Shown: in pieces, positions 2,641-28,241 of the stretch | Numbering within the stretch: position 1 is the first letter of the stretch | How the letters are laid out: each line of letters opens with the position of its first letter | Program-made: the position numbers and the translations under genes | Assembly: GCA_036986135.1 (NCBI GenBank) | Contig: BTQZ01000004.1 | Span: 44,093-108,092 of the forward strand | Reading direction: 5' to 3' | Source of the DNA: Anaerolineae bacterium | Lineage (GTDB): Bacteria > Chloroflexota > Anaerolineae > Anaerolineales > E44-bin32 | Length of the DNA: 64,000 bases | Notes under the pieces: generated by a model | The model's database searches: none | What the model was told of the DNA's origin: nothing | What the model saw: only the letters and a program-made list of their open reading frames with translations

Positions 2641-3168
2641 CTAGAGTGGGATCTGGGTCGAGGGGATCGAGCCAGCTCGTTCGCGCAACAAGCGTGCGCG
2701 AATCTGGCTTTGCGGGATGGTCAGGTCAGTCAGGTCGACGGCATTCAATAGACGATCCCCGGTGGTGAAGAGGAAGGTGAACCGCCGCCAGGAGCGAGAT
2801 GCAATGGGAGGGGAGAGCTCGAGCACGGGTCCCAACTGCATTTTGAAGTAGGGCTCATCCACCCGCTCATGATCGGTCTCCTGGAAGAGCAGCTCACGCC
2901 GCGTTCTCAGCTCATACCCACGCACTTCTGCCAGGTAACGCACCGTCCAGCGATGCTCGCCGAAAGTCGCTGGAAGGTAAAATGCCAGCCAGTCCACACG
3001 CACCGTGCGAGGCGCGGTTACGAGGGGGATCCGATACCATCCCAGAGTCTGCGCGATCTCGAGGTCCCGCGGCGTGTTCAAGATCGCAACGAGTACCAGA
3101 TCCTCCGCTCCCGGCGGGTTCTCCTTCCAATCACGGGTCACTACCTGGCGGCCGGATTTCATGAGCAT
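2641..3168 (-). CDS. Hypothetical protein, no domain recognised
   Basis: 175-aa ORF in a normal codon and amino-acid context with no overlap with better ORFs. I recognise no motif. Confidence 0.55.
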   Translation of the reverse strand: MLMKSGRQVVTRDWKENPPGAEDLVLVAILNTPRDLEIAQTLGWYRIPLVTAPRTVRVDWLAFYLPATFGEHRWTVRYLAEVRGYELRTRRELLFQETDHERVDEPYFKMQLGPVLELSPPIASRSWRRFTFLFTTGDRLLNAVDLTDLTIPQSQIRARLLRERAGSIPSTQIPL

Positions 3169-3222
3169 CCGATATAATAGATCATTTGTTCTAGGCCGTC
3201 AACTATGAATTTCCCCGTTAAC

Positions 3223-3245
3223 TGAAACCTCCCCTTTCGGGGAGG
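3223..3245 (-). terminator. Terminator-like hairpin after the PLP-enzyme gene
   Basis: Stem CCTCCCC/GGGGAGG (3228..3234 and 3239..3245), loop TTTC. On the minus strand it is followed by TTTCAGTT. It lies 23 nt after the stop at 3268. Confidence 0.45.
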
Positions 3246-3267
3246 CTTGAAACGGAGGAAAACGCGG

Positions 3268-4728
3268 CTAGCCCAAGCCGACCCGCGTATTAAATTCCTT
3301 TATGTGCTGGTCGATCTCCTCGACCTGCCCCTGCGTGGCAGTCCAGTAATCTCGATCGTACCACTGCGCCATGATCTCTTCGTAGGTCCGCCCCTGCTGT
3401 TCCACCCAGGTGAAGTACTTCAGGTTGTGGATCCGGCGCCGATCGGTGTAGCGAAGCTCCAGCAAATTCTCGGTGGTAAGTCCCATTAGATAGCGAGCGA
3501 AATCAGCCGCCGCTTCCAGATCGGTGTACTCACCACGCTCCTGGCTCATCTCCTCCAGGCGGCTTTGATACAGATCCATCGAATCGGTGAGCACGGTGAT
3601 CACGACATCCGAGCTGCCCAGCTCGTAGTATTTGGCGAACTTGATGGCCAAGGATAGGTTGGCGATCCCGGAGAACCCGAGCAGATCGAGCTGCCCTAGG
3701 GTATCCTCGGGCACCCCCTGCGATGCAAGATAGTTCTGGCCGGCGGATTCGTTGAAGAGCCGTGCCAGGTGTACGATCCCGTTGTCGTCCAGGTCGATTA
3801 CCATGTCGGTGTTCTTGACGTTGTGGATCCAGGGCACGTGCTTGTCGCCAATGCCCTCGATGCGATGCGCGCCGAATCCGTTCTCGAGCAATGTTGGGCA
3901 CTGAGAGGCTTCGCCAGCGGCGATCTTGCTTCTCGGAAACTTCTGCTTCAAGAAATCCCCGCAGCCAATCGTGCCCGCCGAGCCGGTCGTGAGCGTGACA
4001 CCGCGATATTCATCGCCGGGGCCGAGCTCCTGCTCGAGCACCTCCAACATGGCATGCCCGGTCACTTCGTAGTGCCAGAGGTAATTCCCGAATTGCTCGA
4101 ACTGGTTGAAGATCATCAGATCTTCTCCCGATTCGCGCAACTCCCAGGTCTTGTCGAAGATCTCCTTCACATTCGATTCGCTTCCGGGGGTCTTGATCAC
4201 CTCTCCCGCTATGTTGGCCAGCCAATCGAAACGTTCTTTGCTCATTCCTTCCGGCAAGATTGCCACCGACTGGCAACCCAGCAAAGCCGAATCGTACGCG
4301 CCTCCCCGGCAGTAGTTGCCGGTGGATGGCCAGACCGCCTTTTGGTTCGTCGGATCGAATTGGCCGGTCACGAGGCTGGGCACGAGACAGCCAAATGCCG
4401 CGCCCACCTTGTGCGCCCCGGTCGGGAACCACTTGCCGACCAATGCCAGGATCCGAGCCTCGACTCCGGTCAGGCTGCTGGGGAATTCGATGTAGTTCAC
4501 TCCCCCAAAACCACCACCGGTTTCAACGGGCTCGTTCTTCCAGCTGATGCGGAAGAGATTCAAAGGGTCCACATCCCACAGCCCGACCTGGCCAAGCCTC
4601 TTGCGGATTCCCTCCGGAATGCTGGCAGGGTCCTTCATCTGGGCGAAGGTGGGGACGACAACGCCGCGCTCCTTTGCGCGGCCGGCGGCTCGCTCGAGCC
4701 GATCCTCGTACATTGTTAAGTCAATCAT
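3268..4728 (-). CDS. Pyridoxal-phosphate-dependent enzyme, tryptophan-synthase-beta/cysteine-synthase superfamily (fold type II), long form
   Basis: 486-aa ORF. The PTGAHKVGAAFG lysine motif and STGNYCRGGAYDSALLG resemble the PLP-lysine and glycine-rich loops of fold-type II enzymes. Exact activity not assignable. Confidence 0.75.
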   Translation of the reverse strand: MIDLTMYEDRLERAAGRAKERGVVVPTFAQMKDPASIPEGIRKRLGQVGLWDVDPLNLFRISWKNEPVETGGGFGGVNYIEFPSSLTGVEARILALVGKWFPTGAHKVGAAFGCLVPSLVTGQFDPTNQKAVWPSTGNYCRGGAYDSALLGCQSVAILPEGMSKERFDWLANIAGEVIKTPGSESNVKEIFDKTWELRESGEDLMIFNQFEQFGNYLWHYEVTGHAMLEVLEQELGPGDEYRGVTLTTGSAGTIGCGDFLKQKFPRSKIAAGEASQCPTLLENGFGAHRIEGIGDKHVPWIHNVKNTDMVIDLDDNGIVHLARLFNESAGQNYLASQGVPEDTLGQLDLLGFSGIANLSLAIKFAKYYELGSSDVVITVLTDSMDLYQSRLEEMSQERGEYTDLEAAADFARYLMGLTTENLLELRYTDRRRIHNLKYFTWVEQQGRTYEEIMAQWYDRDYWTATQGQVEEIDQHIKEFNTRVGLG

Positions 4729-7172: not shown

Positions 7173-8969
7173 TCACATTCCTATGGAATCCACTGAAGCT
7201 CCCTTTCCCTGTCCGTCGAGTCGCACAGGGATCAGCGCTTGTTTCGCCACATCAATCAGTCCTCTATCGGAGAAGCCGGCTTCCGGGATCGAGGGAAGCG
7301 ATATGAAGGAGAGCGTCATAAATGGTGTCTTCAACTGGCATCCCAGAGACGCCGCAGCGGTGCGAACCTTTTCGAGTTGTGTTTCGACCTCGCTGGCCGG
7401 CAGCTCGCTCATCAGGCCCGCTATCGGGAGCGGCAGTCTTTCGAGGATTCTACCTTTCTCTGCAACGACGAAGCCGCCCTGGGATTCTTCCAGGGCTCTT
7501 ACGCACAGGAGCATATCTTCATCATTGGTTCCGACCACAAGAATGTTGTGGTGGTCGTGCGCCACCGACCCGGCGATCGCTCCCCGTTTGAGTCCGAAAC
7601 CCTTCGTCCATCCAACGGCGACATTTCCGTTCTTGCCGTACCGCTCCACGACCGCGAGCTTGAGAACATCGAGCTCAGGCGCGGCCTGCGCCGAGCCATC
7701 CTTGATAGAGAGTTCGGCCTCGCGTAGATGGTTGAAGATCTGATCCGGAACGATCTCGATGACACGCAGTCGCACGGTCGTGCCTTGCGCGGGAAACTCA
7801 AATTCATTGGGCTCGAGATCCGCTAGAACGCGAACCGTCCGCTTCAGCCAGTCAGGGAATTCCTGCGGCTTGAGATCGTCTGTGAGCGAACCGCCCTCTG
7901 CCACGACTCGGCCCCCGACCAGCACCATCTCTGGTCGGATTTCGTCGAGAGACGCGCACAACAGAATGTCGGCGAACCGCCCGGGCGCGATTGCCCCTAT
8001 TAGATGACCCACCCTGAAGTGCTCCGCCGCATTGATCGAAGCAATTTTAATCGCTTGCAGCGGACTCAGACCTAAGCGTATGGCCTCATTGACGTTGTAA
8101 TTGATATGCCCCTCGCGTCGGATATCAGACGGATGCTTATCGTCCGTGCAAAACATGAGGTGGCGCGTGTCAATTTGGCGCTCCAGGACGCCTGCAATCA
8201 AGTCATGCAGGTTCCGCTCTGAGCTACCCTCCCGTATCATGACCGCCATACCGACAGCCAAACGAGCCTCAAGCTGATCGACAGTGACACACTCATGGTC
8301 GTCCGTTATTCCGACAGAGGCGTAGGCCTCAAGTTCCGCGCCTTCCAGGCCGATGGCGTGCCCATTGGCGATCTTTCCGAGCTTTGACGCGGCCAGCACC
8401 TTCTGCAGATGTTCGGCTGACAATCTCAAGACCTTTGAAGGGTCAAGCTCTCCCAGGCTAACAGTTTCGGGCCAGGCAAGGATCCGCTCGACCTGCTTGA
8501 TTCCGAGGTCTCCGCCGGTCGTCTCTAGGCCAGGCGCAGTGGGCACGCGCGACGACACCTGAACGAACATTCGATAAGGTAACTCTTCGACCCCACTGAA
8601 AAAGGCTTCGAGGCCCTCGATACCCGCAACATTAGCCACTTCCATGGGATCGACGAGCAGCGTCGTTGTTCCGGTGGGGACGATGACTTCCGACAGGCTG
8701 GCGGGAGTGAGCAGAGTGCTCTCGATGTGAATGTGAGCATCGATAAACCCAGGGAGCGCGTAGAGCCCTTCCGCTTCGATCGTCTCGCGGGAGGCAGCTT
8801 CACTACTCGGAAAGATTGAGACGATCCGCTCTGCTCGGATTCCGATGTCGGTTTCCGTGACCCGCCCCGAAAACACATCCACGAGTCGCACGCCACGAAT
8901 GAGAAGATCGAGCGGCTCACTGCCCAGCGCAGCGCGAACGCGTGCCTCAAGTGTCGCTAAATTGCTCAT
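7173..8969 (-). CDS. ade: Adenine deaminase family amidohydrolase (copy 1)
   Basis: 598 aa. PGFIDAHIHIESTLLTP...VPTGTTTLLVDPMEVANV matches the adenine deaminase HxH/IES signature and length. Confidence 0.85.
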   Translation of the reverse strand: MSNLATLEARVRAALGSEPLDLLIRGVRLVDVFSGRVTETDIGIRAERIVSIFPSSEAASRETIEAEGLYALPGFIDAHIHIESTLLTPASLSEVIVPTGTTTLLVDPMEVANVAGIEGLEAFFSGVEELPYRMFVQVSSRVPTAPGLETTGGDLGIKQVERILAWPETVSLGELDPSKVLRLSAEHLQKVLAASKLGKIANGHAIGLEGAELEAYASVGITDDHECVTVDQLEARLAVGMAVMIREGSSERNLHDLIAGVLERQIDTRHLMFCTDDKHPSDIRREGHINYNVNEAIRLGLSPLQAIKIASINAAEHFRVGHLIGAIAPGRFADILLCASLDEIRPEMVLVGGRVVAEGGSLTDDLKPQEFPDWLKRTVRVLADLEPNEFEFPAQGTTVRLRVIEIVPDQIFNHLREAELSIKDGSAQAAPELDVLKLAVVERYGKNGNVAVGWTKGFGLKRGAIAGSVAHDHHNILVVGTNDEDMLLCVRALEESQGGFVVAEKGRILERLPLPIAGLMSELPASEVETQLEKVRTAAASLGCQLKTPFMTLSFISLPSIPEAGFSDRGLIDVAKQALIPVRLDGQGKGASVDSIGM

Positions 8970-8988
8970 GGTCTCCCCAGATGTTGAA

Positions 8989-9008
8989 AGACGCCTATGC
9001 GGGCGTCT
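8989..9008 (-). promoter_or_regulatory. Intercistronic hairpin between the permease gene and ade copy 1
   Basis: AGACGCC-TATGCG-GGCGTCT, 7-bp stem, in the 81-nt gap. Function unknown (mRNA stabiliser or weak terminator). Confidence 0.3.
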
Positions 9009-9050
9009 GCGCTGTAAATATATGCTGGCTCGAATAATACTCCCGCGTCT

Positions 9051-10028
9051 CTAGATTCCTCTCTCCCCACGAATATAGGGAATCCCCAACGCAGCCGGGG
9101 CCCCGAGTCGCTTTCGCAATGCCTCTCCGGAAGCGATCACGAGCACGAGGATTACGAACAGATAGGGCAGCATGTTGGCAAAATAGCTGAGCAACGGGTC
9201 CTGCAGAATGAGATGCGCATCCAATGGCAGCGGTGGAGCGCCCTGTAGATCGAGCGGAAGACGGCGGATCGCGCCGAAGAGGTAGGATCCGAATGCCGCT
9301 CGGAATGGACCCCAACCTGCGAAGATCACAAGACCGAGAGCGATCCAGCCCTGTCCGGCTGTTAGGCCGTCGATCCAAAGCGGAGTGATCGCCAGGCTCA
9401 AGCTGGCCCCGGCCAATCCTGCAAGCAGCCCTCCAACGAACACGTAGAGATACCGCAGCCGGAACACGTTGATCCCCACCGAGTCCGCCGCGGCCGGGTA
9501 CTCGCCTACTGCACGCATGTTTAGGCCCGGCCGCGTTCGATTGATGATGAACCAGGCGATTGGCACCATGATGAAACCCAGATAGACGATGACGTTGTGT
9601 TGAAAAAAGATCTGCCCTAGCACTGGGATCTGCCCGAGCAGCGGGATATCCAGCGCGGGCAAGCGCGGGGCATCCCGAACATCCACCAGAGACCAACCAA
9701 TCACTGAGCTGAGGCCCGCCCCGACAAAGGTGAGCGCAAGCCCGCTCACCACCTGATCGGCCCGCAAGGTGATCGAGGCTAGCGCGTGAAGCAGGCTCAT
9801 TAGACCGCCTACAATCATCCCCACTAACAAGGCAATCCACGGATCCCCGAGGGTGTGTGACACAAGAAATGCGGTCACTGCCCCCATCAACATCATGCCC
9901 TCGACGCCGAGGTTTATCACACCGGCGCGCTCGGCAAAGAGCTCGCCAATCGTTGCAAACAGCACCGGAGTGCCCGAGGCCACACCCGCGGCAAGGATGG
10001 TTGTGATGAAGATCAGGTAGTTGCTCAC
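9051..10028 (-). CDS. ABC transporter permease, nucleoside/simple-sugar type (YufQ/NupQ-like)
   Basis: 325-aa polytopic protein. ATIGELFAERAGVINLGVEGMM is the conserved N-terminal motif of BMP-system permeases. 4-nt overlap with the upstream permease gene. Confidence 0.9.
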   Translation of the reverse strand: MSNYLIFITTILAAGVASGTPVLFATIGELFAERAGVINLGVEGMMLMGAVTAFLVSHTLGDPWIALLVGMIVGGLMSLLHALASITLRADQVVSGLALTFVGAGLSSVIGWSLVDVRDAPRLPALDIPLLGQIPVLGQIFFQHNVIVYLGFIMVPIAWFIINRTRPGLNMRAVGEYPAAADSVGINVFRLRYLYVFVGGLLAGLAGASLSLAITPLWIDGLTAGQGWIALGLVIFAGWGPFRAAFGSYLFGAIRRLPLDLQGAPPLPLDAHLILQDPLLSYFANMLPYLFVILVLVIASGEALRKRLGAPAALGIPYIRGERGI

Positions 10029-11194
10029 TGGCCCCCTCCCGCCGCCGCGGACTGCGTAACAGACTCGCTGCGCTCGATTCGCACGCGGTACCGCAGGAGA
10101 AGCTCACCGCCCACCACGACAAACAGAATCACGCCATTCAGCATGGACACGATGCCGAACGGTTGAATCTCGTCGCCGCCTACCAGCAGTCCGCCGAAAA
10201 GATAGGCTACCAAAACCACCCCCCAGGGGTTGAGTTTTGCAAGCCAGGCGACGATGATGGCCGTAAACCCGTATCCGGGAGAGATGCGCTCTTGAAAGAT
10301 GTGAATGACGCCGGAGACCTCGCCCATTCCTGCCAGCCCAGCCAGGCCGCCACTGATCAGCATCACCAGCAGGATGTTGCGTTTGATATTCATGCCTGCA
10401 TAGCGTGCGGCTTCAGGATTATCTCCAATGACCTTGATCTCGTAGCCGAACTTGCTTTTGCGCAGCACGTACCAAAGGATGAAGGCGGCCGCGAGGCCGA
10501 TCAGGATTCCGGCATGCGCAGTCAGTCCTCGCAGAATGGAGAATTGGTCGGCGAACTCAGTCAGCCGCGGCAGCCACGCAGTCCGCGGAAACTTCGGCGT
10601 CAATCCAAAGCCACGCAGCGACCACGGCCCGTAGATGAAGAAGTTGTTCCAAAACGCGGCCACGTAGTTCAGCATCAGAGTGGTGATGATGAGATTCACG
10701 CCTAACCAAGCCTTCAGTGCACCGGGAACCGCGCCGTAAAGTCCTCCTGCCAGGAAGGCAGCCAGCATCATTGCGGGGATCATGATGAAAGCCGGCGTAT
10801 CCGGGCTGAGCAGCTTGAGTGCCACGCCGGTCGCTGCCCAGGCTCCAATCAGGAGCTGGCCCTCCGCGCCGATGTTCCACAGCTGCATGCGAAAAGCGAG
10901 CGCGACGCTGAGACCAGCCAGCAGCAGTGGCGTGGCCTTGATGGTCGTATCGGACAGCGGATAGAGCTCACCTCTCAGCCAGCCGGCAGGTGTGCCGAAG
11001 GCGGCCCGGAAGATGCGAGAATACGCCACGAAAGGGCTGACTCCCACGATCGATAGCAGCACCCCACCGACGATCAACGCGCCGATCACCAGGACGACGG
11101 GGGAGAGGATCGAGAGCCAGCGCGGATTGTCCAGGCGCTTTTGGATGCGGATGCGGTATGGAAACCGTTCGGCGATCGAGCTCTGAGCGCTCAT
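10025..11194 (-). CDS. ABC transporter permease, nucleoside/simple-sugar type (YufP/NupP-like)
   Basis: 389-aa polytopic protein. LWNIGAEGQLLIGAW motif. Adjacent to the ATPase and second permease. Confidence 0.9.
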   Translation of the reverse strand: MSAQSSIAERFPYRIRIQKRLDNPRWLSILSPVVLVIGALIVGGVLLSIVGVSPFVAYSRIFRAAFGTPAGWLRGELYPLSDTTIKATPLLLAGLSVALAFRMQLWNIGAEGQLLIGAWAATGVALKLLSPDTPAFIMIPAMMLAAFLAGGLYGAVPGALKAWLGVNLIITTLMLNYVAAFWNNFFIYGPWSLRGFGLTPKFPRTAWLPRLTEFADQFSILRGLTAHAGILIGLAAAFILWYVLRKSKFGYEIKVIGDNPEAARYAGMNIKRNILLVMLISGGLAGLAGMGEVSGVIHIFQERISPGYGFTAIIVAWLAKLNPWGVVLVAYLFGGLLVGGDEIQPFGIVSMLNGVILFVVVGGELLLRYRVRIERSESVTQSAAAGGGQ

Positions 11195-11200
11195 TTTCAG

Positions 11201-12751
11201 CTATCCGGCTTTGACATTGTGAGCTGTTCGCGTGCCGGCCATCATCAGACCGATTTCCTCGATATCGGCACCTTCAGCGCTCATCTCGCCCATGATTTGG
11301 CCCTCGTAGATCACGGCAATGCGGTCGGCCAGCGCCATGATCTCGTCCAGATCTTCGGAAATCATAAGAATGGCGGCGCCTTCGTCTCGCTGCTCCAACA
11401 AGATGCGATGCACGGCTTCGGTGGCGCCCACGTCCAATCCGCGAGTGGGCTGCATGGCAACCAGCATTGCAGGAGCTCCGGATATCTCTCGCGCCAGGAT
11501 AAGCTTCTGTAAATTGCCGCCCGAAAGCAGTCGTGAGGGAGTTTCAATTGAGGGAGTGGCAATGTCGAATTCGTCAACGAGTTTCTCGGCCTGCTCGCGC
11601 ATGGCGACGAGATTCATCACCCATCCGTTCCCAATCGGCGGGATGCGGTAATTCCGTAAGGCCAAGTTCTCGGATATGTTCATGTTGGGAACACTGCCCA
11701 TTCCCACTCGGTCCTCGGGAACGAAAGATAGTCCCGCCTCGAGCACATGGCTGGGCGAAGCGTTCGTAACTTCGCGACCCTGCGCGATGACCGATCCTCC
11801 CGTCGCCTCGCGCAGCCCTGTAACTGCTTCGGCAAGCTCTCTCTGACCGTTCCCCGACACTCCCGCCAGGGCAAGGATTTCACCAGTACGCACCTCCAGC
11901 GATATCCCCTTCAGAGCCGGAAGACCCTTGTCGTCAAGGGCCTGGAGGTTCCTGATCTCTAGAATGGGCTCGCCGGGAGTCGCGGCCTTTCGATCGATGC
12001 GGAACAAAACCTCTCGTCCCACCATGAGCCTTGCCAGATCCTTCTTCGTCACTCCTTCGAGGTCAATGCCGCTGGACACCATGCGCCCGAGTCGCAAGAC
12101 GCTGATCCGATCCGCGATCTCGAGTACTTCGTGCAACTTGTGGCTGATGAAGATGATCGTCTTGCCAGAGCTCGCCATCTCACGCAGCGTGTGGAAGAGC
12201 TCCTCCACCTCTTGAGGCGTAAGCACCGCTGTGGGCTCGTCCATAATGAGGATGTTGGCTCCCCGGTAGAGCATCTTCAAGACTTCCACTCGCTGCTGCT
12301 CACCTACGGAGAGTTGCCAGATCTTGGCACGCGGATCGACGCTGATGTTGAACCGCTGGCTGAGCGCTTCCACCTCCGCCTCGATCTTCTGGGGGCGGAG
12401 AAGAAATCGAGCTTCATCCAATCCCAGAACTAGATTCTCGGCAACGGAGAGGACGGGTACCAACATGAAATGCTGATGGATCATTCCGATGCCGTCATGG
12501 ATGGCGTCCTTCGGCGATCCAAAGGTGACCTTTGCTCCGTCTACATAGATCTCACCCTCGTCCGGGTGATAAAGCCCGGAGAGGATGTTCATGAGCGTGC
12601 TCTTGCCCGCCCCGTTCTCGCCCAGCAGTGCGTGCACTTCCCCCGCTCGAACGTCAAGGTCGACGCGATCGTTGGCTAACACGCCGGGGAAGCGCTTGAC
12701 GATGCCTCGCATTTCAACGGCGAGGCGGTTCTCGCTCACGGCTGCATTCAA
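11201..12751 (-). CDS. ABC transporter ATP-binding protein with duplicated ATPase domains (YufO/NupO-like)
   Basis: 516 aa. Walker A GENGAGKST, signature LSVGEQQRVEVLK, and a second signature LSGGNLQKLILAREI. Confidence 0.95.
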   Translation of the reverse strand: MNAAVSENRLAVEMRGIVKRFPGVLANDRVDLDVRAGEVHALLGENGAGKSTLMNILSGLYHPDEGEIYVDGAKVTFGSPKDAIHDGIGMIHQHFMLVPVLSVAENLVLGLDEARFLLRPQKIEAEVEALSQRFNISVDPRAKIWQLSVGEQQRVEVLKMLYRGANILIMDEPTAVLTPQEVEELFHTLREMASSGKTIIFISHKLHEVLEIADRISVLRLGRMVSSGIDLEGVTKKDLARLMVGREVLFRIDRKAATPGEPILEIRNLQALDDKGLPALKGISLEVRTGEILALAGVSGNGQRELAEAVTGLREATGGSVIAQGREVTNASPSHVLEAGLSFVPEDRVGMGSVPNMNISENLALRNYRIPPIGNGWVMNLVAMREQAEKLVDEFDIATPSIETPSRLLSGGNLQKLILAREISGAPAMLVAMQPTRGLDVGATEAVHRILLEQRDEGAAILMISEDLDEIMALADRIAVIYEGQIMGEMSAEGADIEEIGLMMAGTRTAHNVKAG

Positions 12752-12767
12752 CTCCTGGAGTGAAAGG

Positions 12768-12804
12768 ATACCGGACAGGTCCGCGTCACGGACCTGTCCG
12801 GTAT
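12768..12804 (-). promoter_or_regulatory. Perfect 16-bp stem-loop between the binding-protein gene and the ATPase gene
   Basis: ATACCGGACAGGTCCG (12768..12783), loop CGTCA, CGGACCTGTCCGGTAT (12789..12804). It sits in the 91-nt gap of an otherwise tight operon. Confidence 0.6.
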
Positions 12805-12842
12805 CTGTTTTCTAACGACCTGCTTCCCGCTTGCAGAATCGA

Positions 12843-14108
12843 CTACCCACCCGACATTGCAGGGATCTCAGCCTCTGGCAGGAATCCCTCTACGAGAAAG
12901 TTCATGCAAATCTGGCACGGCTCGCGGTCGAGTCCGAAGCTATCGATCGTAGCCTGGTCGAGTCCCTCAAGATCTTCCTGAGTTGGCACTACTCCCTCGG
13001 CGATGACAAGGTTGCCCTTGTTGTCGTAGATTGGACCCGTAAACAGATCGAAGCGGTCGAACTCGCCGCTCTGCATCTCGGCCCATTTCTCCTCTACCAA
13101 GGGGATCACCCAATCGGGCACAGCATCAGGAAACTCACCGTCGGTCAGGCCCAGCAGGCCGACGATACCGCTCTCCGCACCCGGATACCAGTCTGAGGGC
13201 GTCCACGTTCCAGCCTGGACTTCTTTGATGAATTCCTCATAGGCCACGCCCCAGTTCCAGTAGGGAACCGTCAGGCAGGCCTCGGGATCGGCGTCGCATG
13301 AGGTATTGCTGTCATAGGCAATTCCCCACAGTCCACGCTCACCGGCGGCCTGGACCGGCCCCGGCGTGTCCGCACCCGTCACGACCACTGTGGCCCCTGC
13401 GTCGAGCAGCGATTCACCGGCTTGGATTTCCTTGTCGGGATCGAACCAGGTGAAGATCCAGCGCACGTCGACCTCACACTCGGGGCAAGTCTCGCGCACA
13501 CCCATCGTTAGGGCATTACTCAACCGAACCACTTCCGCGATCGGCCAGGGTGCGATGTAGCCAACACGGTTGCTCCCGTCTTCCTTGGCGCGCGCACCTG
13601 CGACCATCCCGGCCAAGAACTTGGTCTGCTCCATCGCTCCGAACAGATTTCCAAAGTTTTCGTCGTTCTTCAGGAATCCCGACACGTGCAAGAAGGCGGT
13701 GTCTGGAAACTCTTCAGCTATCTCGGGCATCGGGAATTGGAACTCGAAGCTGGTAGCGATGATGGCATCAAAGCCTTTGCGCGCCAGGTTGCGCATGACC
13801 CGAGCCGCGTCCGCCTCAGAGAGGATGGACTCCAGATAGACGGTGTGAACGTTGTCTACATTCTGCTCTAGGTACTCTCGACCCTGATTGTGGGCATAGG
13901 TCCACCCAGCATCGCCGATCGGCCCTATGTACACGAACGCCACATTAGTCTTGCCTTCCTCGGGTTCGGGCAGCGTGATGGTCACGTCATCCCCGAATCC
14001 CGAGACCGTGATCTCCTCTGGTGTAGCCGGCTCCTGGGCGCACGCCGCAACCAGCAGCCCGCCGACCAACAGCACAGTGATAGCTAGCCCCGCTTTGTGT
14101 CTCATCAT
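12843..14108 (-). CDS. BMP-family (PnrA/Med-like) ABC substrate-binding lipoprotein, probable purine nucleoside binding
   Basis: 421 aa. Lipobox LLVAAC. FVYIGPIGDAGWTYAHNQG and GFDAIIATSFEF resemble the basic-membrane-protein family. Confidence 0.85.
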   Translation of the reverse strand: MMRHKAGLAITVLLVGGLLVAACAQEPATPEEITVSGFGDDVTITLPEPEEGKTNVAFVYIGPIGDAGWTYAHNQGREYLEQNVDNVHTVYLESILSEADAARVMRNLARKGFDAIIATSFEFQFPMPEIAEEFPDTAFLHVSGFLKNDENFGNLFGAMEQTKFLAGMVAGARAKEDGSNRVGYIAPWPIAEVVRLSNALTMGVRETCPECEVDVRWIFTWFDPDKEIQAGESLLDAGATVVVTGADTPGPVQAAGERGLWGIAYDSNTSCDADPEACLTVPYWNWGVAYEEFIKEVQAGTWTPSDWYPGAESGIVGLLGLTDGEFPDAVPDWVIPLVEEKWAEMQSGEFDRFDLFTGPIYDNKGNLVIAEGVVPTQEDLEGLDQATIDSFGLDREPCQICMNFLVEGFLPEAEIPAMSGG

Positions 14109-14205
14109 CTAGTACTCCTCCTATTGTAGAGTTTCGTGGGAATCAGACGGTAGTTGCTACGAGCCGAGCGATGTCACCTCCTCTCATTAAATGAGTCGCC
14201 GGCGG

Positions 14206-15153
14206 TCAAGGGACTATTCGGGTCCCCGTCTTGCCGGCGAGCGCTCGCTCGATATTGTCCGGATCTGTCACCAGGGCTTCTTTGCCCCCAGCCTCCAGGT
14301 ATTTGATGATCGCCTGTACCTTAGGCTCCATACTTCCTTTGGCAAAATGGCCCTGCTCCATGTAAGCCTTGGCTTCTGCCAAGGTCACCTTGTCCAACCA
14401 CAGCTGATCTGGCTGGTTATAGTTTAACGCAATCTGCGGGACTGCTGTCGAGATAAGAAGCAAATCGGCTCCGATCTGAGAGGCCAGCAATGCGGACGCA
14501 AAGTCCTTGTCGATGACCGCCTCGACTCCAGCTAGATATCCCGCCTCGTCTTGAACAACGGGAATTCCACCGCCTCCCACGGCGATCACGACAAAGCCAT
14601 CTCCAATGAGCGACTCGATCGCCTCCCGCTGAACGATCCGCACCGGCAACGGTGAAGGTACAATCCGGCGCCATCCTCGGCCGGCGTCTTCCACCACGAC
14701 CCATCCTTCGGCATCCACCCGTCGATTGGCGGTCGACTCATCCATGAAGGATCCGATCGGCTTTGTGGGCGCCTCGAAGGCCGGGTCGTTGCGGTCCACG
14801 AGCACCTGAGTGACCACGGTGGCTGCCTGCTTCTCGATTCCGCGTCGCGTGAACTCATTGTAGAGCGACTGCTGGAACATATAGCCAATGGCGCCCTGGC
14901 TGTCGGCGCCGCAGTAGTCCAGCGGCACCTCGTGAAGCTCATGCTTTGCGAGCTCGGATCGCCTGAGAATGAAGCCCACTTGCGGCCCGTTGCCGTGGGT
15001 AATCACCACATCCCAGTCATCTTCGATCATGCCCGCGATGTGCTTCATTGACTCGGCCGCCGCTTCGTACTGGTCCTGAACGGTCTTGTGTCCCTTGTCC
15101 TTGATCAGCGAGTTGCCGCCGACGGCGACCACCGCCACTTTTTTCTCTGCCAA
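14206..15153 (-). CDS. arcC: Carbamate kinase
   Basis: 315 aa. VVAVGGNSL...VITHGNGPQVG...GGGGIPV motifs and typical length. Confidence 0.9.
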   Translation of the reverse strand: MAEKKVAVVAVGGNSLIKDKGHKTVQDQYEAAAESMKHIAGMIEDDWDVVITHGNGPQVGFILRRSELAKHELHEVPLDYCGADSQGAIGYMFQQSLYNEFTRRGIEKQAATVVTQVLVDRNDPAFEAPTKPIGSFMDESTANRRVDAEGWVVVEDAGRGWRRIVPSPLPVRIVQREAIESLIGDGFVVIAVGGGGIPVVQDEAGYLAGVEAVIDKDFASALLASQIGADLLLISTAVPQIALNYNQPDQLWLDKVTLAEAKAYMEQGHFAKGSMEPKVQAIIKYLEAGGKEALVTDPDNIERALAGKTGTRIVP

Positions 15154-15172
15154 ATTAGCTTCTCCCCTCGCC

Positions 15173-16153
15173 TCACTTCATCGTCAGTGCCATGACCGCC
15201 TTTTGTACGTGCAGGCGGTTCTCGGCTTCGTCGAATACCACGCTCTGCGGTCCGTCGATCACCGCATCCGTCACCTCGACATTACGGTCGGCCGGCAGCG
15301 GATGCATATAGATCGCGTCCTTATGGGCCAGCGACATCTTGCGTTCGTCCGTGATCCAACTCTCGTATTGATCCTGGATTTGTTTGCCTTCGTCAGGATC
15401 CTGCGTAGTCAGCAGCGGGCCCCAGGACTTGGCGTACACCACTTCCGCCCCCTCAAAGCCGGCTTCCATATCCTCCACAACCTTAAATTTCGTCCCGGCC
15501 CTTTCCGCCTCGGCCTGCGCCTGTTCCATTACATCCTGCATCAACTTGAACTCCGGTGGATGGGCCAGGGTGAGATCCAAGCCGAAGCGCGGCATTTGCA
15601 GGATCAGCGATTGCGGGACGGAGACCGGCTTCAAATACGAAGCGGCATAGGCCCAGGAAACGACCATCTTAACCCCGCGCAGATCAGGACCCTTTTTCTC
15701 TTGAATGGTCATGAGATCGGCCAGGATCTGGAAGGGATGGTAGGTTTCGCACTGCATGTTGAGCACCGGCACACGGGCAGCGTTCGCGACGAAGTTCAGA
15801 TACTGGTTCCCCACTCCCCAGTCCACGTGCCGGATGGCGATGCCGTCGAAGTACCGTCCGAAGATATCGCCGATCTCTCGCTCGGTGTCGCCGTGCGCGA
15901 TCTGTGTGGTCTTGGATTCAATGAAGGCCGCGTGCCCGCCCAGCTGCGCCATTCCCGATTCAAATGAACCGCGCGTGCGCGTGCTGCTGAAGAAAAACAG
16001 CATGGCAAGCGTCTTATCGCGCAAATAGGCGTGCGGCTCGCCCAGCGCCCGCTTGCGCTTGAGGTCATAGGCCACATCCAGAACGGTCTCCACCTCTTCT
16101 TTGCTGAAATCCAGGTCGCCGATCAGATCGCGGCCTCTTAGGTCAGTCTGCAT
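15173..16153 (-). CDS. Carbamoyltransferase of the OTC/ATC superfamily, non-canonical (neither ornithine nor putrescine motifs)
   Basis: 326 aa. The carbamoyl-phosphate motifs are present (FFFSSTRTRGSFE, HPFQ). The OTCase DxxxSMG position reads VVYAKSWGPLL and HCLP reads MHPLPA. Confidence 0.8.
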   Translation of the reverse strand: MQTDLRGRDLIGDLDFSKEEVETVLDVAYDLKRKRALGEPHAYLRDKTLAMLFFFSSTRTRGSFESGMAQLGGHAAFIESKTTQIAHGDTEREIGDIFGRYFDGIAIRHVDWGVGNQYLNFVANAARVPVLNMQCETYHPFQILADLMTIQEKKGPDLRGVKMVVSWAYAASYLKPVSVPQSLILQMPRFGLDLTLAHPPEFKLMQDVMEQAQAEAERAGTKFKVVEDMEAGFEGAEVVYAKSWGPLLTTQDPDEGKQIQDQYESWITDERKMSLAHKDAIYMHPLPADRNVEVTDAVIDGPQSVVFDEAENRLHVQKAVMALTMK

Positions 16154-16285
16154 GTGCTCAACCTCTCCCGTCTCATCTGCCTGGCGTTCGCGTAGATGGC
16201 TATGCGCAGTCGACTATTGCGCCGGCCGGTCTATTCCGGAATCCCATATCCTTTCGTGGTGGAGTCAGCCCTGTGGAGATCTCCC

Positions 16286-17236
16286 CTACTCCATCGCCCC
16301 CAAAACGAGTGAAAGCAGCGCCATTCTCATCACCACCCCATTGAAGGCCTCTTCCCAGTAGCGTGCGTGCCGCGTGTAGTCCACCTCTTCCAGCAGCTCA
16401 TCCATGCGAGGCAGGGAGTGCAGGATGATCGAATCTCCCTTGGCCTTCTTCATGAGCTCCCTGGTCACCTGATAGTTCGCGGGTGTCATGCCCACCTCAC
16501 CCGTGCGCTCATCGCGTGACTTAGTGTAGTCCGGCTGTACCACCGGCTCCATATAGATCACGTCCGCCTTGTCGATGACCTGCTCAATGTGCTCGATTTC
16601 ATCGTACTCCAGGTTGAGCTCATCGATTTCTACCTTGAACTCGTCGGTCAGCGACATGTCCTCCGGGGCGATGTAGCTGGCGCTGATATCGAACTGGCTC
16701 ATTGCATAGCTCATGGAATGCATGGTGCGCATGCGCATGTCACCGACCAAAACGAAATGCAGGCCGTCCAGCGTGCCTTTCTCTTTCAAGATGGTGTACA
16801 TGTCCGTAAGCACTTGCGTCGGATGTTCTCCCCAGCCATCTCCAGCGTTGATCACTGGCACGCTGGCCCACTTCGCGGCCTCTGCGGGCGCACCCTGCTC
16901 GAAGTGGCGCATCACGATCACATCGCCGTAATACTCCAGCATGTGCACCGTGTCCTTGATTGATTCCTGATAGAAATCACCGGCGCGGGTCATCTTGGCG
17001 TCGGCGAAGCCGGTAACCTCGCCACCCAGCCGCAGCATGGCCGCCTCGTGGGCCAGACGCGTGCGTGTACTGGGTTGGTAAAAGGCGGTGACCAGGATCT
17101 TTCCGGCCAATAGATCTGAATTCCGTCGATCACGCGCGATATGGGCCAATCGATCTGCGGTCTCGAACACGCGGAAATACTCCGCACGCTCAAAGCCCTT
17201 CAGCGAAAGAATGTCTCGTCCTGCAAAGCTTCTCAT
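16286..17236 (-). CDS. Aspartate-carbamoyltransferase-like protein, non-canonical second-substrate site
   Basis: 316 aa. QPSTRTRLAHE and EHPTQ are present. The ATCase segment D(I/V)LYMTRVQKER reads DVIYMEPVVQPDY, and HPLPR reads HSLPR. Confidence 0.8.
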   Translation of the reverse strand: MRSFAGRDILSLKGFERAEYFRVFETADRLAHIARDRRNSDLLAGKILVTAFYQPSTRTRLAHEAAMLRLGGEVTGFADAKMTRAGDFYQESIKDTVHMLEYYGDVIVMRHFEQGAPAEAAKWASVPVINAGDGWGEHPTQVLTDMYTILKEKGTLDGLHFVLVGDMRMRTMHSMSYAMSQFDISASYIAPEDMSLTDEFKVEIDELNLEYDEIEHIEQVIDKADVIYMEPVVQPDYTKSRDERTGEVGMTPANYQVTRELMKKAKGDSIILHSLPRMDELLEEVDYTRHARYWEEAFNGVVMRMALLSLVLGAME

Positions 17237-17285
17237 CTGTGATGTCCTCCTGTGACTTGGTCCTCAAAAGAGCGCTCGCGCGAGA

Positions 17286-18002
17286 TTAGGCTGCGGTGCT
17301 CAGACCGCGTCCGACCCGCCGAACGACATGAAACTTGAACGTGCCGGGCCGAAAATAGCTCTGGGATCGATCCACGACCTGCCCGTCCTTGGTAAATAGA
17401 CTAGCTTCGAACCGAAGCAGCACGGATCCTGCCGGAACTCCCAGCCGCTCGGCGACCTGCCCTTCAGCGGACACCGCGCTAATCTCACTTTTCGAATACT
17501 CCAGCGCCGGCTCTCCACGCTCCAACAGTAGATCCAAAACGGAGCCGTGAAATTCCTTGGCCAGCACGGCGTCAGGAATCAGGTCTTTCCCGATAGTGTC
17601 AACTAGGTAGGCCACAGTTTCCCCCTCCGCTAGAATGTCGCGTGAGATCTCAATCACCTGATCGACTCCCAGCAGCTGAGCCTCCTCCGGATCTGAGCTG
17701 CGGTGCAGGATCTCGGAATCTCCCATTTCCACCTCCAGGCCCACCCTGGCCGCCATTGTCTCGATGCTTATCAGCTCTTCCAAGCCGGCTTCGATAACCG
17801 TCGGTGGCACATAGGTTCCTACCCCTTGACGCCGCACGATCAGCCCGCGATCCTCGAGGGCGCTCATAGCTTCCCGCAGTGTGGGACGCGAGACGCCCAA
17901 CTGCTCTGCCAGCCTCGGTTCGGAGGGAAGAACTTCTCCCGGCTCGCTTCGCTCAAGCAGCTCTGCCAACGCGTGCGCGGTACGTTGATAAGGTTTGCTC
18001 AT
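17286..18002 (-). CDS. GntR-family transcriptional regulator, HutC subfamily (UTRA effector domain)
   Basis: 238 aa. LPSEPRLAEQLGVSRPTLREAMSALEDRGLIVRRQGVGTYV winged-helix motif. 4-nt overlap with the upstream ade copy 2. Confidence 0.9.
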   Translation of the reverse strand: MSKPYQRTAHALAELLERSEPGEVLPSEPRLAEQLGVSRPTLREAMSALEDRGLIVRRQGVGTYVPPTVIEAGLEELISIETMAARVGLEVEMGDSEILHRSSDPEEAQLLGVDQVIEISRDILAEGETVAYLVDTIGKDLIPDAVLAKEFHGSVLDLLLERGEPALEYSKSEISAVSAEGQVAERLGVPAGSVLLRFEASLFTKDGQVVDRSQSYFRPGTFKFHVVRRVGRGLSTAA

Positions 18003-19774
18003 CTGCTCTCGTCTATCAGCGGCACGACTTCGAAGCGATTCACATCGACCAGACCGAGGTCGGAGATCCGTAGCTCAGGGATCACGACCAGAGCAAGCAG
18101 ACTCAGCTGCATATTGGCACTATTCAGGGTGCAGCCACATTTCCGAAATGCCTCAAGCAGTCTGGCGGCCTTTCCCGCTACCACTTCTGCAGGCTCATCC
18201 GACATCAAGCCCGCGATGGGCAGCTCAACCAGCGCAATGACCTCGCCGTTGCGCACCACGATCTGGCCGCCCCCCACTCTAGCCAACTCATTGGCCGCCA
18301 GCGCCATGTTGCCGTCATCCGTACCCACTACCAGCATGTGATGAGAGTCGTGGGCGACGGTAGAAGCCACTGCGCATCCTTGGTCCAGGCCAAACCCTTG
18401 GACTAGCCCGAGCTGAACCGTTCCGTTGCCGCGATGCCTCTCGACAAGAGCAAGCTTGGCTAGATCCGCTTCAACGTCCGCCTCTAGGACGCCATTTTGC
18501 GGCTTCAGATCCGCATGCAGATGCTCCGTACGTGCCTGATTTTCATTAACGCCGATGACGTTGGCAGTGACTGGTCCATTGCTTGGTGCGCTCAGCTTGA
18601 AGTCAGCCGCGATCAGTTCTCTCTTCAGGTGAACCGATCCTCGCACTTCCGCTGGGTAGGCAAAATCCGGTGGATCGACCAGGATCTTCCCCTCCTGTAC
18701 CGCCACAAGTCCCTTGGCGATCACGATCTCGACTTCGAATTCGCTAAGTTCGCCAACCAGAAGCAGATCGGCATAGCGTCCCGGTGCGATCTGACCCACA
18801 TCGGTTGACACCCCGAAATGCTCCGCAGTATTGAGAGTGGCCATCTGAATGGCCGTCATCGGCTCCACGCCCTGGTCGATGGCGTGTCGCACGACTCGGT
18901 CCATATGGCCCTCGTGAACCAGCGTGCCGGAATGAATGTCGTCTGTTACCAGGATGAAATGGCGAGAATCGAGCCCGAGCTCAGTCACGGCCCGGATCTG
19001 CTCGGCCACGTCATGCCACGCGGAGCCGAGTCGCATAAAGACCTTCATGCCCTGACGGACTCGGGCCACCGCATCCTCAATGCGTGTACCTTCGTGATCA
19101 TCTTCCGGGCCGCCGGCGACATAGGCGTGGAATGGAATTCCCAGATCGAACGAGGCGTAGTGGCCGCCGGCTACTCTGCGGGCGGCGCGGGCCTCTGCCA
19201 TCTCGGCATGCAAACGCTGGTCGCCTGCGATCACGCCGGGGACGTTCATCATCTCCCCAAGCCCGATGATGCCTGGCCAGCTCAACGCCTGAGCCACTTC
19301 ATGCGGCCCGATCTTGGCTCCCGCGGTTTCCAACCCGGGCGCCGATGGGACGCAAGACGGCATCTGCACCCACACGTGGATCGGCTGCAAAGCGGCCTCA
19401 TCCACCATCATGCGCACCCCATCCAGTCCAAATATGTTCGCGATTTCGTGTGGATCGATAAAGATGCCGGTCGTCCCGTGCGGAAGGACCGCCTGCACAA
19501 ACTGCGTGATGGTAAGCATGCCAGATTCAATGTGCATGTGCCCATCCAGCAGTCCAGGTACGGCGTGCCGACCCTCGGCCTCTATGATGAGCGTCTCATC
19601 GCCGATGGTGTGCCCGGCATCTTCCCCGACGTAGGCAATCCGCTGGCCGCTGATGGCGATTTGCGTGTCGTCCAGGATCTCACCGGACTGCACGCACACC
19701 CAGCGCGCGCCAAGCACGACCATGTCCGCCGGTTTGCGGCCCATGGCGACATCGACGAGGTGCTTTGACTGCAT
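17999..19774 (-). CDS. ade: Adenine deaminase family amidohydrolase (copy 2)
   Basis: PGLLDGHMHIESGMLT...LPHGTTGIFIDPHEIANI. I prefer the ATG at 19774 (MQSKHLVDV...) over the GTG at 19834 given in the ORF track. The start is uncertain. Confidence 0.85.
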   Translation of the reverse strand: MQSKHLVDVAMGRKPADMVVLGARWVCVQSGEILDDTQIAISGQRIAYVGEDAGHTIGDETLIIEAEGRHAVPGLLDGHMHIESGMLTITQFVQAVLPHGTTGIFIDPHEIANIFGLDGVRMMVDEAALQPIHVWVQMPSCVPSAPGLETAGAKIGPHEVAQALSWPGIIGLGEMMNVPGVIAGDQRLHAEMAEARAARRVAGGHYASFDLGIPFHAYVAGGPEDDHEGTRIEDAVARVRQGMKVFMRLGSAWHDVAEQIRAVTELGLDSRHFILVTDDIHSGTLVHEGHMDRVVRHAIDQGVEPMTAIQMATLNTAEHFGVSTDVGQIAPGRYADLLLVGELSEFEVEIVIAKGLVAVQEGKILVDPPDFAYPAEVRGSVHLKRELIAADFKLSAPSNGPVTANVIGVNENQARTEHLHADLKPQNGVLEADVEADLAKLALVERHRGNGTVQLGLVQGFGLDQGCAVASTVAHDSHHMLVVGTDDGNMALAANELARVGGGQIVVRNGEVIALVELPIAGLMSDEPAEVVAGKAARLLEAFRKCGCTLNSANMQLSLLALVVIPELRISDLGLVDVNRFEVVPLIDESR

Positions 19775-19914
19775 GTGGATGGTGTCTGCTTCTAAGCGGG
19801 GGTGCCCAAAAGGAGAGGATCCTCGGCTTTGCACCCCAGGTTCGGGTCAGTCTAACACCGGCACAAAGAGTGGTCAATTGTCAGACAACCCGCCGGGGGA
19901 TGCGCAAAGTCACT

Positions 19915-28043: not shown

Positions 28044-28050
28044 AGCTGGG

Positions 28051-28203: not shown

Positions 28204-28241
28204 TATTTTCGCTGCACAGCGGTACTTCTCGGGGTGATCCT

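Follow-up and report, generated by a model that had tools for sequence, protein, structure and literature searches.

We analysed a window of 64,000 bp from the metagenome-assembled genome of an uncultured Anaerolineae bacterium of the phylum Chloroflexota (contig BTQZ01000004.1, positions 44,093 to 108,092), in which a gene cluster combines two carbamoyltransferases and a carbamate kinase with a GntR-type regulator, two enzymes dependent on pyridoxal phosphate (PLP), an ABC importer and two proteins of the adenine deaminase family. Gene content and its conservation suggest that this locus is probably the energy-conserving end of the reductive (2,8-dioxopurine) pathway of purine and urate degradation, in a variant of the Chloroflexota type that also takes up and deaminates purines. 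An earlier reading of this DNA from its letters alone, hereafter the original prediction, had proposed a catabolic locus for N-heterocycles and had found the route to a carbamoyl compound unexplained. The catabolic part of that proposal is supported by the occurrence of the core genes inside purine-degradation clusters, but the route can no longer be called unexplained: it matches a pathway published in 2025, with 2,3-diureidopropionate and mono-ureido-diaminopropionate as intermediates (PMC12507026; bioRxiv 10.1101/2025.04.24.650524). The pathway itself, the lower half of that reductive purine pathway, is already known. What is new here is the enzyme set, namely a pseudo-aspartate carbamoyltransferase in place of a hydrolase, a short YgeW-like enzyme in place of YgeW, a thrC-derived lyase candidate in place of YgeX, a further PLP enzyme that we call PALP486, and a conserved candidate operator.

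The pathway was established in 2025 for E. coli, C. difficile and C. sporogenes. It begins with the reduction of urate to 2,8-dioxopurine, which is dearomatised and then opened by SsnA and HyuA to give 2,3-diureidopropionate. YgeW uses phosphate to release one ureido group as carbamoyl phosphate, from which YqeA makes ATP; YgeY takes the second ureido group, and YgeX forms pyruvate from 2,3-diaminopropionate (PMC12507026; bioRxiv 10.1101/2025.04.24.650524). A Chloroflexota variant with an F420 enzyme was seen by Li et al. solely via a network coloured by generic Pfam families (PMC12507026).

The original prediction had described eleven co-directional open reading frames (ORFs) in a fixed order, and all were found on the minus strand in that order, at the positions given below, with families that Pfam and NCBIfam confirmed. 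From upstream to downstream they include a deaminase gene (ade2), the GntR gene, a gene resembling aspartate carbamoyltransferase (ATCase), which we call ATCl, a gene resembling ornithine carbamoyltransferase (OTCase), which we call OTCl, the carbamate kinase gene, the genes of a BMP-type importer and a second deaminase gene (ade1). Four-nucleotide overlaps join ade2 to the GntR gene and the two permease genes to each other, and the remaining gaps measure 6 to 132 nt. The unit does not end at position 7173, where the original prediction had closed it. After a gap of 12 nt comes a thrC-like PLP enzyme gene (thrCl), then a glycosyltransferase-like gene of the GT2 type and, 2 nt beyond it, PALP486, after which terminator-like hairpins close the unit. 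The two PLP enzymes, both part of the conserved core, had thus been overlooked.

A gene-neighbourhood comparison, which the original prediction had proposed as a check, shows that the clustering is conserved across phyla. Taking one genome per species, we found more than 583 relatives of ATCl and examined the best 80 loci (73-98% identity) with flanks of 10 kb on either side; loci are cited below by number (L001 and so on). Most are from Anaerolineae, with others from Acidimicrobiia, Thermoleophilia, Verrucomicrobiae and Phycisphaerales. OTCl is present in 68 of the 80, a GntR gene adjoining ATCl in 62, and carbamate kinase in 61, a clustering far beyond chance. The thrC-like gene is found in 40 loci and PALP486 in at least 22, often lying beyond the 10-kb flank. 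Among the other neighbours are an 8-oxoguanine deaminase (44 loci; NF006055, 680 bits against a cutoff of 532), a gene that the window does not have, together with ade2 (42), a BMP-type ABC transporter (about 38) and an ade1-type gene (3).

Loci without a transporter or Ade genes have the order GntR-ATCl-OTCl-carbamate kinase-thrCl-(GT2)-PALP486; in Actinomycetota, Verrucomicrobiota and Planctomycetota the order of the core genes is shuffled while their linkage is kept. The transporter slot varies between loci and holds two different transporter types. The conserved core is therefore made up of a GntR regulator and, under it, the kinase, both carbamoyltransferases and both PLP enzymes, to which the deaminases and the importer are accessory. 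This revises the original prediction, which had treated the bracketing by two deaminases and an importer as the defining frame of the locus: ade1 is restricted to the nearest relatives, ade2 is found in about half of the loci, and the core occurs without these deaminases and without the importer.

The connection to urate degradation comes from the surroundings of this core. In 15 of the 80 ATCl loci, markers of the upper pathway lie around it with scores above their NCBIfam cutoffs: SsnA (505 bits against 444), YgfK (898 against 835), Se-dependent xanthine dehydrogenase (XDH; 1000 against 830), YgeY (470 against 321) and D-hydantoinase/HyuA (534 against 393), in addition to an F420 LLM reductase. 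SsnA occurs in six of the 80 loci and HyuA in five, and a molybdenum hydroxylase and a dearomatising reductase lie beside the core in L059, L067, L068, L073, L075 and L079. For example, the full pathway stands in a single run of genes in the Anaerolineae locus L073, which comprises Se-XDH, XDH-FAD, thrCl, a PALP486-like gene, F420 reductase, YgeY, ATCl, OTCl, carbamate kinase, SsnA, XDH-FAD/FeS, Se-XDH and HyuA, while L059, from Thermoleophilia, combines upper-pathway markers with a BMP transporter and an Ade-like gene. A second scan covered 80 metagenome loci anchored on PALP486, with a verrucomicrobial member as reference. The recurrent neighbours of PALP486 in these loci were an OTCase-family carbamoyltransferase (25-27 loci), YgeY (27), the thrC-like gene (25), Se-XDH (21), SsnA (19), YgfK (10), HyuA (9) and carbamate kinase (8), and none besides; 53 of the loci are 8 kb or longer, and 35 of these carry SsnA, YgeY, XDH, YgfK or HyuA. 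Because the core sits in reductive urate clusters of divergent genomes, its carbamoyl compound would most likely be 2,3-diureidopropionate together with the mono-ureido product of that compound.

Judged by its residues, ATCl (16286-17236) is not an ATCase. The protein keeps the carbamoyl-phosphate motifs STRTR, MRH, HPTQ and LPR and the alpha-carboxylate residue Arg167. Throughout the family, the YMTRVQKER of ATCase has become YMEPVVQPDYT, with loss of R229 and Q231, the 80s loop is remodelled (DAKMTRAGDFYQE in the window protein), with loss of K84, and HPLPR reads HSLPR. The comparison was made with E. coli PyrB, and an alignment of the P. abyssi protein from the PDB gives the same picture. 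Despite the lost PyrB residues, ATCl exceeds the cutoff of the ATCase model TIGR00670 (256 against 237), which explains why databases name such proteins aspartate carbamoyltransferase.

Paralogues of this kind were named pseudo-ATCases by Barba et al. in 2013. One subgroup, that of Rxyl_2847 from Rubrobacter, phosphorolyses allantoate in vitro; another pseudo-ATCase, from Nocardioides sp. JS614, adjoins a ygeW homologue, xdhABC and hyuA and was assigned no function at the time (PMC4016543). ATCl is 66% identical to the Nocardioides protein (A1SH59; sequence from the supplementary alignment of PMC4016543), with which it shares HSLPR, YMEPVVQxDYT and GDMRM-RTMHS, and these motifs make it a member of the HSLP subgroup. 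Specifically, it has STRT and HPTQ, HSLP and no RxQ, and its relatives in L059, L067, L073 and L075 have the ygeW/xdh/hyuA type of surroundings that A1SH59 also has. The context of ATCl differs from that of A1SH59 in the addition of carbamate kinase, two PLP enzymes, deaminases and an ABC importer, and in being widespread in Chloroflexota. The ureidoglycine carbamoyltransferase (UGTCase) Rxyl_2847 of Rubrobacter xylanophilus resembles ATCl in belonging to the ATCase branch, in lacking RxQ and in being followed by a carbamate kinase, and it phosphorolyses an alpha-N-carbamoyl amino acid with a ureido side chain in purine catabolism. It differs in its subgroup, in its 240s loop (VYLPGCSAPKGEA, against IYMEPVVQPDYT in ATCl) and in its substrate, allantoate, which is supplied by the oxidative route of uricase and allantoinase; the surroundings of ATCl show no such route. 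We note that the subgroup numbering and motifs in Table 1 of Barba et al. disagree with the labels of their tree file (marine, HPLA; Rubrobacter, HTLP; Nocardioides, HSLP) and that the 'VXP' motif of the HSLP subgroup reads PVV in their own alignment, so that group numbers need care in citing (PMC4016543).

Neither YgeY nor YgeX is found in the window locus; the only M20 gene of the window (51535-52773) belongs to another cluster and is 22% identical to YgeY. We compared the distribution of ATCl and YgeY over the 95 loci that carry an OTCl- or YgeW-type transferase: ATCl alone is present in 68, YgeY alone in 20, both in 2 and neither in 5. Given this near-exclusivity, the simplest reading is that ATCl does the job of YgeY, with phosphorolysis taking the place of hydrolysis. 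The target of ATCase chemistry is an alpha-N-carbamoyl group, and amidohydrolases of N-carbamoyl amino acids are found among the M20 enzymes of the YgeY type. For these reasons the pattern is a better fit to the order of Liu et al., in which YgeW removes the 3-ureido group and YgeY the 2-ureido group (bioRxiv 10.1101/2025.04.24.650524), than to the differing account of Li et al. (PMC12507026). Another ATCase-like gene, in L124 (13682-14605, on a 2.9-Mb contig), lies beside carbamate kinase in a YgeW/SsnA/YgeY cluster and passes the TIGR00670 cutoff. We considered it as a second example and dropped it because it has GLLTR for STRTR; it also has DPLSR for HPLPR, and its product could be a pseudo-enzyme or have a different activity.

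The second transferase, OTCl (15173-16153), is 24% identical to ATCl. It has YAKSWGPLL where OTCase has DxxxSMG, and HPLP rather than HCLP (by comparison with E. coli ArgI). We aligned OTCl to true YgeW proteins from L124, L126, L132 and L156; true YgeW of the loci examined scores 669 bits against the model cutoff of 453. OTCl and these proteins have in common the QIAHG(E/D) 80s loop, a Gln five residues before HPxQ, the proline-rich loop SWAYAASYxKPxSVPQ and the lysine of YAKSWG. These shared features are the positions of the second-substrate site proposed for YgeW, comprising Q98*, Q160, S200, K203 and K270 (PMC4581275). At 33% identity to E. coli YgeW, OTCl lacks the YgeW insertions and the C-terminal extension; extra N- and C-terminal helices and a long 240s insertion are structural marks of the knotted YgeW/YTCase proteins. 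Orthologues of this short form (45-56% identity) stand in for YgeW in clusters that are otherwise like that of E. coli, for example in L094.

The carbamate kinase (14206-15153) is of the YqeA/ArcC type, passes both kinase models (TIGR00746, 380 against 358; NF009007, 411 against 266) and is 48% identical to E. coli YqeA. The locus thus holds the pair of transferase and kinase, with the kinase above its cutoffs and the transferase YgeW-like at 184 bits against the YgeW cutoff of 453. The original prediction had read such a pair as a sign of catabolic substrate-level ATP formation, and this idea gains support from the motif losses and the conserved purine-degradation context. It had also named the possibility that the two transferases were ordinary PyrB and ArgF; the loss of the specificity motifs in both, with clustering conserved across phyla, argues against this.

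Of the two PLP enzymes, the thrC-like protein (5913-7160) passes the threonine synthase model TIGR00260 (210 against 167) and keeps the PLP lysine motif NPTASFKDR. Across 51 members of its family, the NPYR[LI]EG of ThrS has become NP[FY]xxEG, with T, M or L in place of Arg (NAFTVEG in the window), and STGNT has become STGNA. We take the lost Arg and Thr to form the phosphate site, as in the T. thermophilus ThrS structures, and the thrC-like protein is for this reason unlikely to be a threonine synthase. With E. coli proteins as queries, YgeX-like genes were found in 3 of the 160 loci of the two scans, all three beside PALP486 and without thrCl. This distribution points to thrCl as the protein that does the work of YgeX, and to an additional function for PALP486. 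The YgeX-like genes are 35-39% identical to E. coli YgeX; those of L110 (11563-12645) and L128 (1698-2861) lie about 100 nt or less downstream of PALP486, and that of L131 (7531-8697) about 1.3 kb upstream of it.

PALP486 (3268-4728) is a fold-type-II PLP enzyme of 486 aa with weak similarity to PALP and to CysK/CBS proteins, and sources call it 'cysteine synthase' or 'PLP-dependent enzyme'. Since HyuA yields an (R)-configured intermediate, a racemase reaction or that of a ureido-amino-acid lyase would be a reasonable guess for it, though no more than a guess. The protein was also modelled with AlphaFold, from input homologues that were all at least 77% identical; at a mean pLDDT of 54 the model was too poor for a fold search and was set aside. 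Behind PALP486 lies a small conserved ORF, c29 (2674-3105, minus strand, about 150-200 aa), with a promoter-like site of its own at 3202..3174. It has 65% identity between loci and no NCBIfam hit, and HyuA is the next gene in three relatives (L031, L035 and L063).

The two deaminases, ade2 (17999-19834) and ade1 (7173-8969), belong to the COG1001 adenine-deaminase family of amidohydrolases and are 36% identical to each other. Both score just above the cutoff of 472 of the adenine deaminase equivalog TIGR01178 (484 bits for ade2, 495 for ade1), and their predicted substrate is accordingly adenine or another aminopurine. All metal and catalytic motifs are kept in ade2 (HxH, DPHE, E, H, HE, DD, HD). 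ade1 scores 297 bits to the A. tumefaciens adenine deaminase Atu4426 (PDB 3nqb) and conserves the catalytic residues except for DPME in place of DPHE, in which Met replaces a His that we take to be the third-metal ligand of Atu4426. The paralogues thus share the metal and catalytic motifs of Atu4426 and E. coli Ade and differ from these known enzymes in their borderline scores, their mutual divergence and the DPME of ade1. An orthologue of ade1 was found in L001 only, with distant relatives of 37-43% identity in L059, L062 and L126 (the first two of these, with L001, are the three ATCl loci counted above); ade1 is a lineage-specific addition.

Between the kinase and ade1 lie the genes of the importer. 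The substrate-binding protein (12843-14108; Pfam Bmp, 150 bits) is a lipoprotein of the BMP/PnrA family whose signal ends in the lipobox LVAAC. It is followed by a two-domain ATPase (11201-12751; Pfam ABC_tran in two stretches) and two permeases that Pfam assigns to BPD_transp_2 (10025-11194 and 9051-10028). An ORF at 8995-10122 that overlaps the second permease was judged spurious.

The regulator (17286-18002; Pfam GntR and UTRA) is of the GntR/HutC type, with a winged helix and a UTRA effector domain. Ahead of the ade2 ORF, at a distance of 15 nt from its start, is a promoter-like site (19849..19877, minus strand) that matches the consensus with TTGACC, a 17-nt spacer and a TG-extended TAGACT. 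Abutting its -35 hexamer is the palindrome TTGTCnGACAA (TTGTCTGACAA on the coding strand, 19878..19888), the single perfect copy in the window. The 80 ATCl loci contain 54 perfect copies, spread over 42 of them, where about 1 would be expected in 1.22 Mb. Nearly all of these copies directly precede the first cluster gene, in most cases merged with a TTGAC -35 box, and 4 loci have an additional one ahead of the thrC-like gene. A palindrome of the GT-N-AC type at a promoter is what a GntR/HutC protein would be expected to bind, and TTGTCnGACAA is a credible operator for this regulator, with binding predicted from these features. A different perfect palindrome upstream of ade2, TGTGCTAGCACA, which is unique in the window, was rejected as the operator because no related locus conserves it. 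The promoter region separates ade2 from a FolD gene farther upstream. An Rfam scan of the window at gathering thresholds gave no match, and hence no riboswitch such as a purine riboswitch.

From gene context and motifs we infer the substrates, the order of phosphorolysis, the ATP yield and the role of the regulator in the following scheme. The BMP-type ABC system would import a purine nucleoside or base, and the Ade paralogues would deaminate adenine-type purines; most relatives add an 8-oxoguanine deaminase at this point. Conversion of the purine to 2,3-diureidopropionate would be the task of Se-dependent molybdenum hydroxylases, a reductase of the F420 or YgfK type, SsnA and HyuA, which are not encoded in the window. 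OTCl would then phosphorolyse one ureido group of 2,3-diureidopropionate, most likely the 3-ureido group, and ATCl, in the place of YgeY, the other, alpha-N-carbamoyl (2-ureido), group of the diaminopropionate intermediate. The single carbamate kinase would convert both molecules of carbamoyl phosphate, with ADP, to ATP, ammonia and CO2, giving two ATP per purine and not one. The thrC-like enzyme, in the place of YgeX, would turn 2,3-diaminopropionate into pyruvate and ammonia, and PALP486 would perform a further step, for example that of a racemase or a ureido-amino-acid lyase. The GntR/HutC protein is probably a repressor of the unit that binds TTGTCnGACAA over the -35 box. We advance only tentatively, as a conjecture that may well fail, the specific claim that both ureido groups are phosphorolysed (the 3-ureido group by OTCl and the 2-ureido group of a D-configured N-carbamoyl amino acid by ATCl), which would double the yield to two ATP per purine, with a finish by a thrC-derived diaminopropionate lyase and a PALP486 of new reaction. 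If it is true, the near-exclusive pattern of ATCl and YgeY would settle the published disagreement over YgeW in favour of removal of the 3-ureido group first.

The scheme has a close precedent in the ygeW-ygeX-ygeY-hyuA-yqeA / ygfK-ssnA-ygfM-xdhD cluster of E. coli. There, too, a carbamoyltransferase of the OTCase superfamily stands beside a YqeA-type kinase, a PLP enzyme handles a C3 amino acid, and a guaD deaminase and purine importers lie alongside, a precedent for the feeder genes of the window locus; SsnA, HyuA, YgfK, Se-XDH and YgeY are shared between this cluster and loci related to that of the window. The E. coli cluster differs in holding the upper-pathway genes, of which the window has none. 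Its YgeW is about 70 aa longer than the relative in the window, its YgeY hydrolase corresponds to a second carbamoyltransferase, the pseudo-ATCase, and its YgeX to the thrC-like enzyme, with PALP486 as an extra. Its regulator is the sigma-54 activator YgeV rather than a GntR/HutC protein, and its importers are NCS2 permeases rather than an ABC/BMP system. The arginine deiminase, agmatine deiminase and oxalurate pathways, in which a catabolic OTCase, PTCase or OXTCase works with a carbamate kinase, follow the same logic of ureido phosphorolysis and subsequent ATP formation from carbamoyl phosphate and ADP. They differ from the window locus, which has no arcA or agmatine deiminase gene and in which two sequential carbamoyltransferases would feed one kinase.

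Several observations weigh against a place for this locus in the reductive pathway, or against parts of the scheme. The window has no homologue of SsnA, HyuA, XDH, YgfK or the F420 reductase, in keeping with the original prediction, which had noted the absence of xanthine dehydrogenase and allantoinase; the substrates of the module may thus be intermediates that are imported, or other compounds. OTCl reaches no NCBIfam cutoff: besides its low YgeW score, it has 267 bits against 288 for acetylornithine transcarbamylase (AOTCase), and it falls below the cutoff of all OTCase models. The association between ATCl and YgeY gives 6e-14 in a Fisher test, a value inflated by shared ancestry and by the use of two different anchors, and strict replacement of YgeY is weakened by L073 and L123, which hold YgeY plus both carbamoyltransferases. 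Enzymes of the ATCase fold normally take L-substrates. The product of HyuA is an (R), that is D-configured, intermediate (bioRxiv 10.1101/2025.04.24.650524). Which carbamoyltransferase takes which ureido group is uncertain, because the two papers of 2025 disagree on the ureido group that YgeW attacks. In L087, L089 and L091, PALP486 (about 63% identity to the verrucomicrobial reference) stands alone among housekeeping genes (PtsI, LepA, signal peptidase and CCA-adding enzyme), and the family may have a role beyond purine degradation. Finally, the ABC importer costs ATP, so that the net energy gain may be small and the supply of nitrogen or carbon the main benefit.

Missing upper-pathway genes would also suit a stand-alone scavenging system, whose importer takes up ureido amino acids released by the community or hydantoin-derived N-carbamoyl compounds (diureidopropionate, albizziin and citrulline-like molecules are candidates), with the transferases and the kinase making ATP and the Ade genes serving co-regulated salvage. 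Such a system would agree with the many Anaerolineae loci, the majority, that show just the core, deaminases and a variable transporter within 10 kb on either side, and with the change of transporter type from locus to locus. However, Pfam types the binding proteins of the BMP family as binders of purine nucleosides (PnrA-like), purine bases are the input suggested by the deaminases that stand under the same operator, and the upper-pathway genes are dispersed in many genomes, with SsnA common in Chloroflexota according to Li et al. (PMC12507026). We regard scavenging as unlikely. Lower still we place an ending of the oxidative urate pathway, in which ATCl would be a ureidoglycine carbamoyltransferase like Rxyl_2847, converting allantoate and phosphate to ureidoglycine and carbamoyl phosphate, and OTCl would act on ureidoglycine or oxalurate. 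A related pseudo-ATCase does have this activity in vitro (PMC4016543), and 8-oxoguanine deaminase, which yields urate, is a frequent neighbour. But the subgroup and the 240s-loop residues of ATCl are not those of Rxyl_2847, the cyclic amidohydrolase of related loci scores 534 bits as D-hydantoinase against 249 as allantoinase, and no unlabelled family such as uricase, HIU hydrolase or allantoinase recurs in the 160 loci, whose neighbouring genes mark the reductive route instead.

Two further explanations can be given very little weight. A nucleoside-type importer, two Ade-like hydrolases, an ATCase-like protein without the beta-carboxylate site and a thrC-like neighbour could together serve the catabolism of N6-threonylcarbamoyl-adenosine (t6A) or a similar modified nucleoside, if an Ade-like enzyme released N-carbamoyl-threonine, ATCl phosphorolysed it and the thrC-like enzyme handled the threonine. 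We dropped this highly improbable idea, because the core is also conserved where Ade genes and a nucleoside importer are missing, and co-localises with SsnA, YgfK, HyuA, YgeY and XDH; the pattern of the thrC-like partner matches that of YgeX, and a literature search on t6A catabolism gave no support. A search of the literature on ureidopropionate carbamoyltransferases and on follow-ups to the pseudo-ATCase work gave nothing beyond the papers cited here. The least probable explanation, for which we see hardly any room, is ordinary biosynthesis, with PyrB, ArgF (or acetylornithine transcarbamylase), an anabolic carbamate kinase and ThrC and CysK as neighbours. The cutoffs of TIGR00670 and TIGR00260 are formally passed, and database names agree with it. 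Yet the aspartate- and ornithine-binding motifs and the phosphate-binding Arg of ThrS are lost family-wide, and a GntR/UTRA regulator and catabolic neighbours are found where pyrC, pyrI and arg genes are not seen. Genuine PyrB coexists with pseudo-ATCases (Barba et al., PMC4016543). A role in the reductive purine pathway thus remains the reading that we prefer.

Other features of the unit are of less certain relevance. The GT2 gene (4731-5699; Pfam Glycos_transf_2), which resembles polyprenyl-phosphate glycosyltransferases of the PgfS/ArnC type, lies between the two PLP genes in Chloroflexota loci only (25 of the 80 ATCl loci, L004-L078) and is not part of the actinobacterial, verrucomicrobial and planctomycete versions; it has no visible role in the pathway, and its membership is doubtful. 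The terminator-like hairpins at the end of the unit (3220..3280, minus strand) are formed by CCTCCCC-GAAA-GGGGAGG and then TTTCAGTT. In the 91-nt gap between the genes for the binding protein and the ATPase, a perfect GC-rich hairpin of 17-18 bp (GATACCGGACAGGTCCG...CGGACCTGTCCGGTATC, 12766..12806) may act as an mRNA stabiliser or as an attenuator that sets the ratio of binding protein to transporter. Another hairpin, AGACGCC-CGCATA-GGCGTCT followed by TTC (8989-9008), separates ade1 from the last permease gene and may, as a partial terminator, allow the segment ade1-thrCl to be tuned on its own.

In the rest of the window we searched for pyrB, argF, arcA, XDH, SsnA and HyuA and found none. 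An unrelated catabolic cluster headed by an IclR gene (48428-63081, minus strand, and 63206-63925) contains a GFO/IDH/MocA oxidoreductase, an RraA-like aldolase, an SBP_bac_1 ABC transporter, an M55 D-aminopeptidase, a 2-hydroxyacid dehydrogenase, a Zn-ADH, an M20 peptidase, a PfkB kinase and a class-III aminotransferase, and its substrate is possibly an amino sugar or a D-amino-acid conjugate. A stretch concerned with metal homeostasis (27189-46015) encodes an EfeU/FTR1 iron permease, two P-type ATPases (one with HMA domains), a CDF cation-efflux protein and a MacB-type ABC exporter.

These results bear on annotation as well as on physiology. Three systematic mis-annotations are flagged, 'aspartate carbamoyltransferase', 'threonine synthase' and 'cysteine synthase'. 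A subgroup of pseudo-ATCases that has been without a function since 2013 now has a proposed, testable substrate, PALP486 is recognised as a PLP enzyme that accompanies the pathway in many lineages, and a candidate pair of regulator and operator is supplied. The comparative evidence also bears on the order in which the ureido groups are cleaved, and a higher ATP yield per purine is predicted. The reductive purine pathway was worked out in 2025 in gut Proteobacteria and Firmicutes only; the locus described here points to a version of different construction that is common in Anaerolineae and also present in other environmental phyla, with relatives of ATCl in more than 580 species-level genomes.

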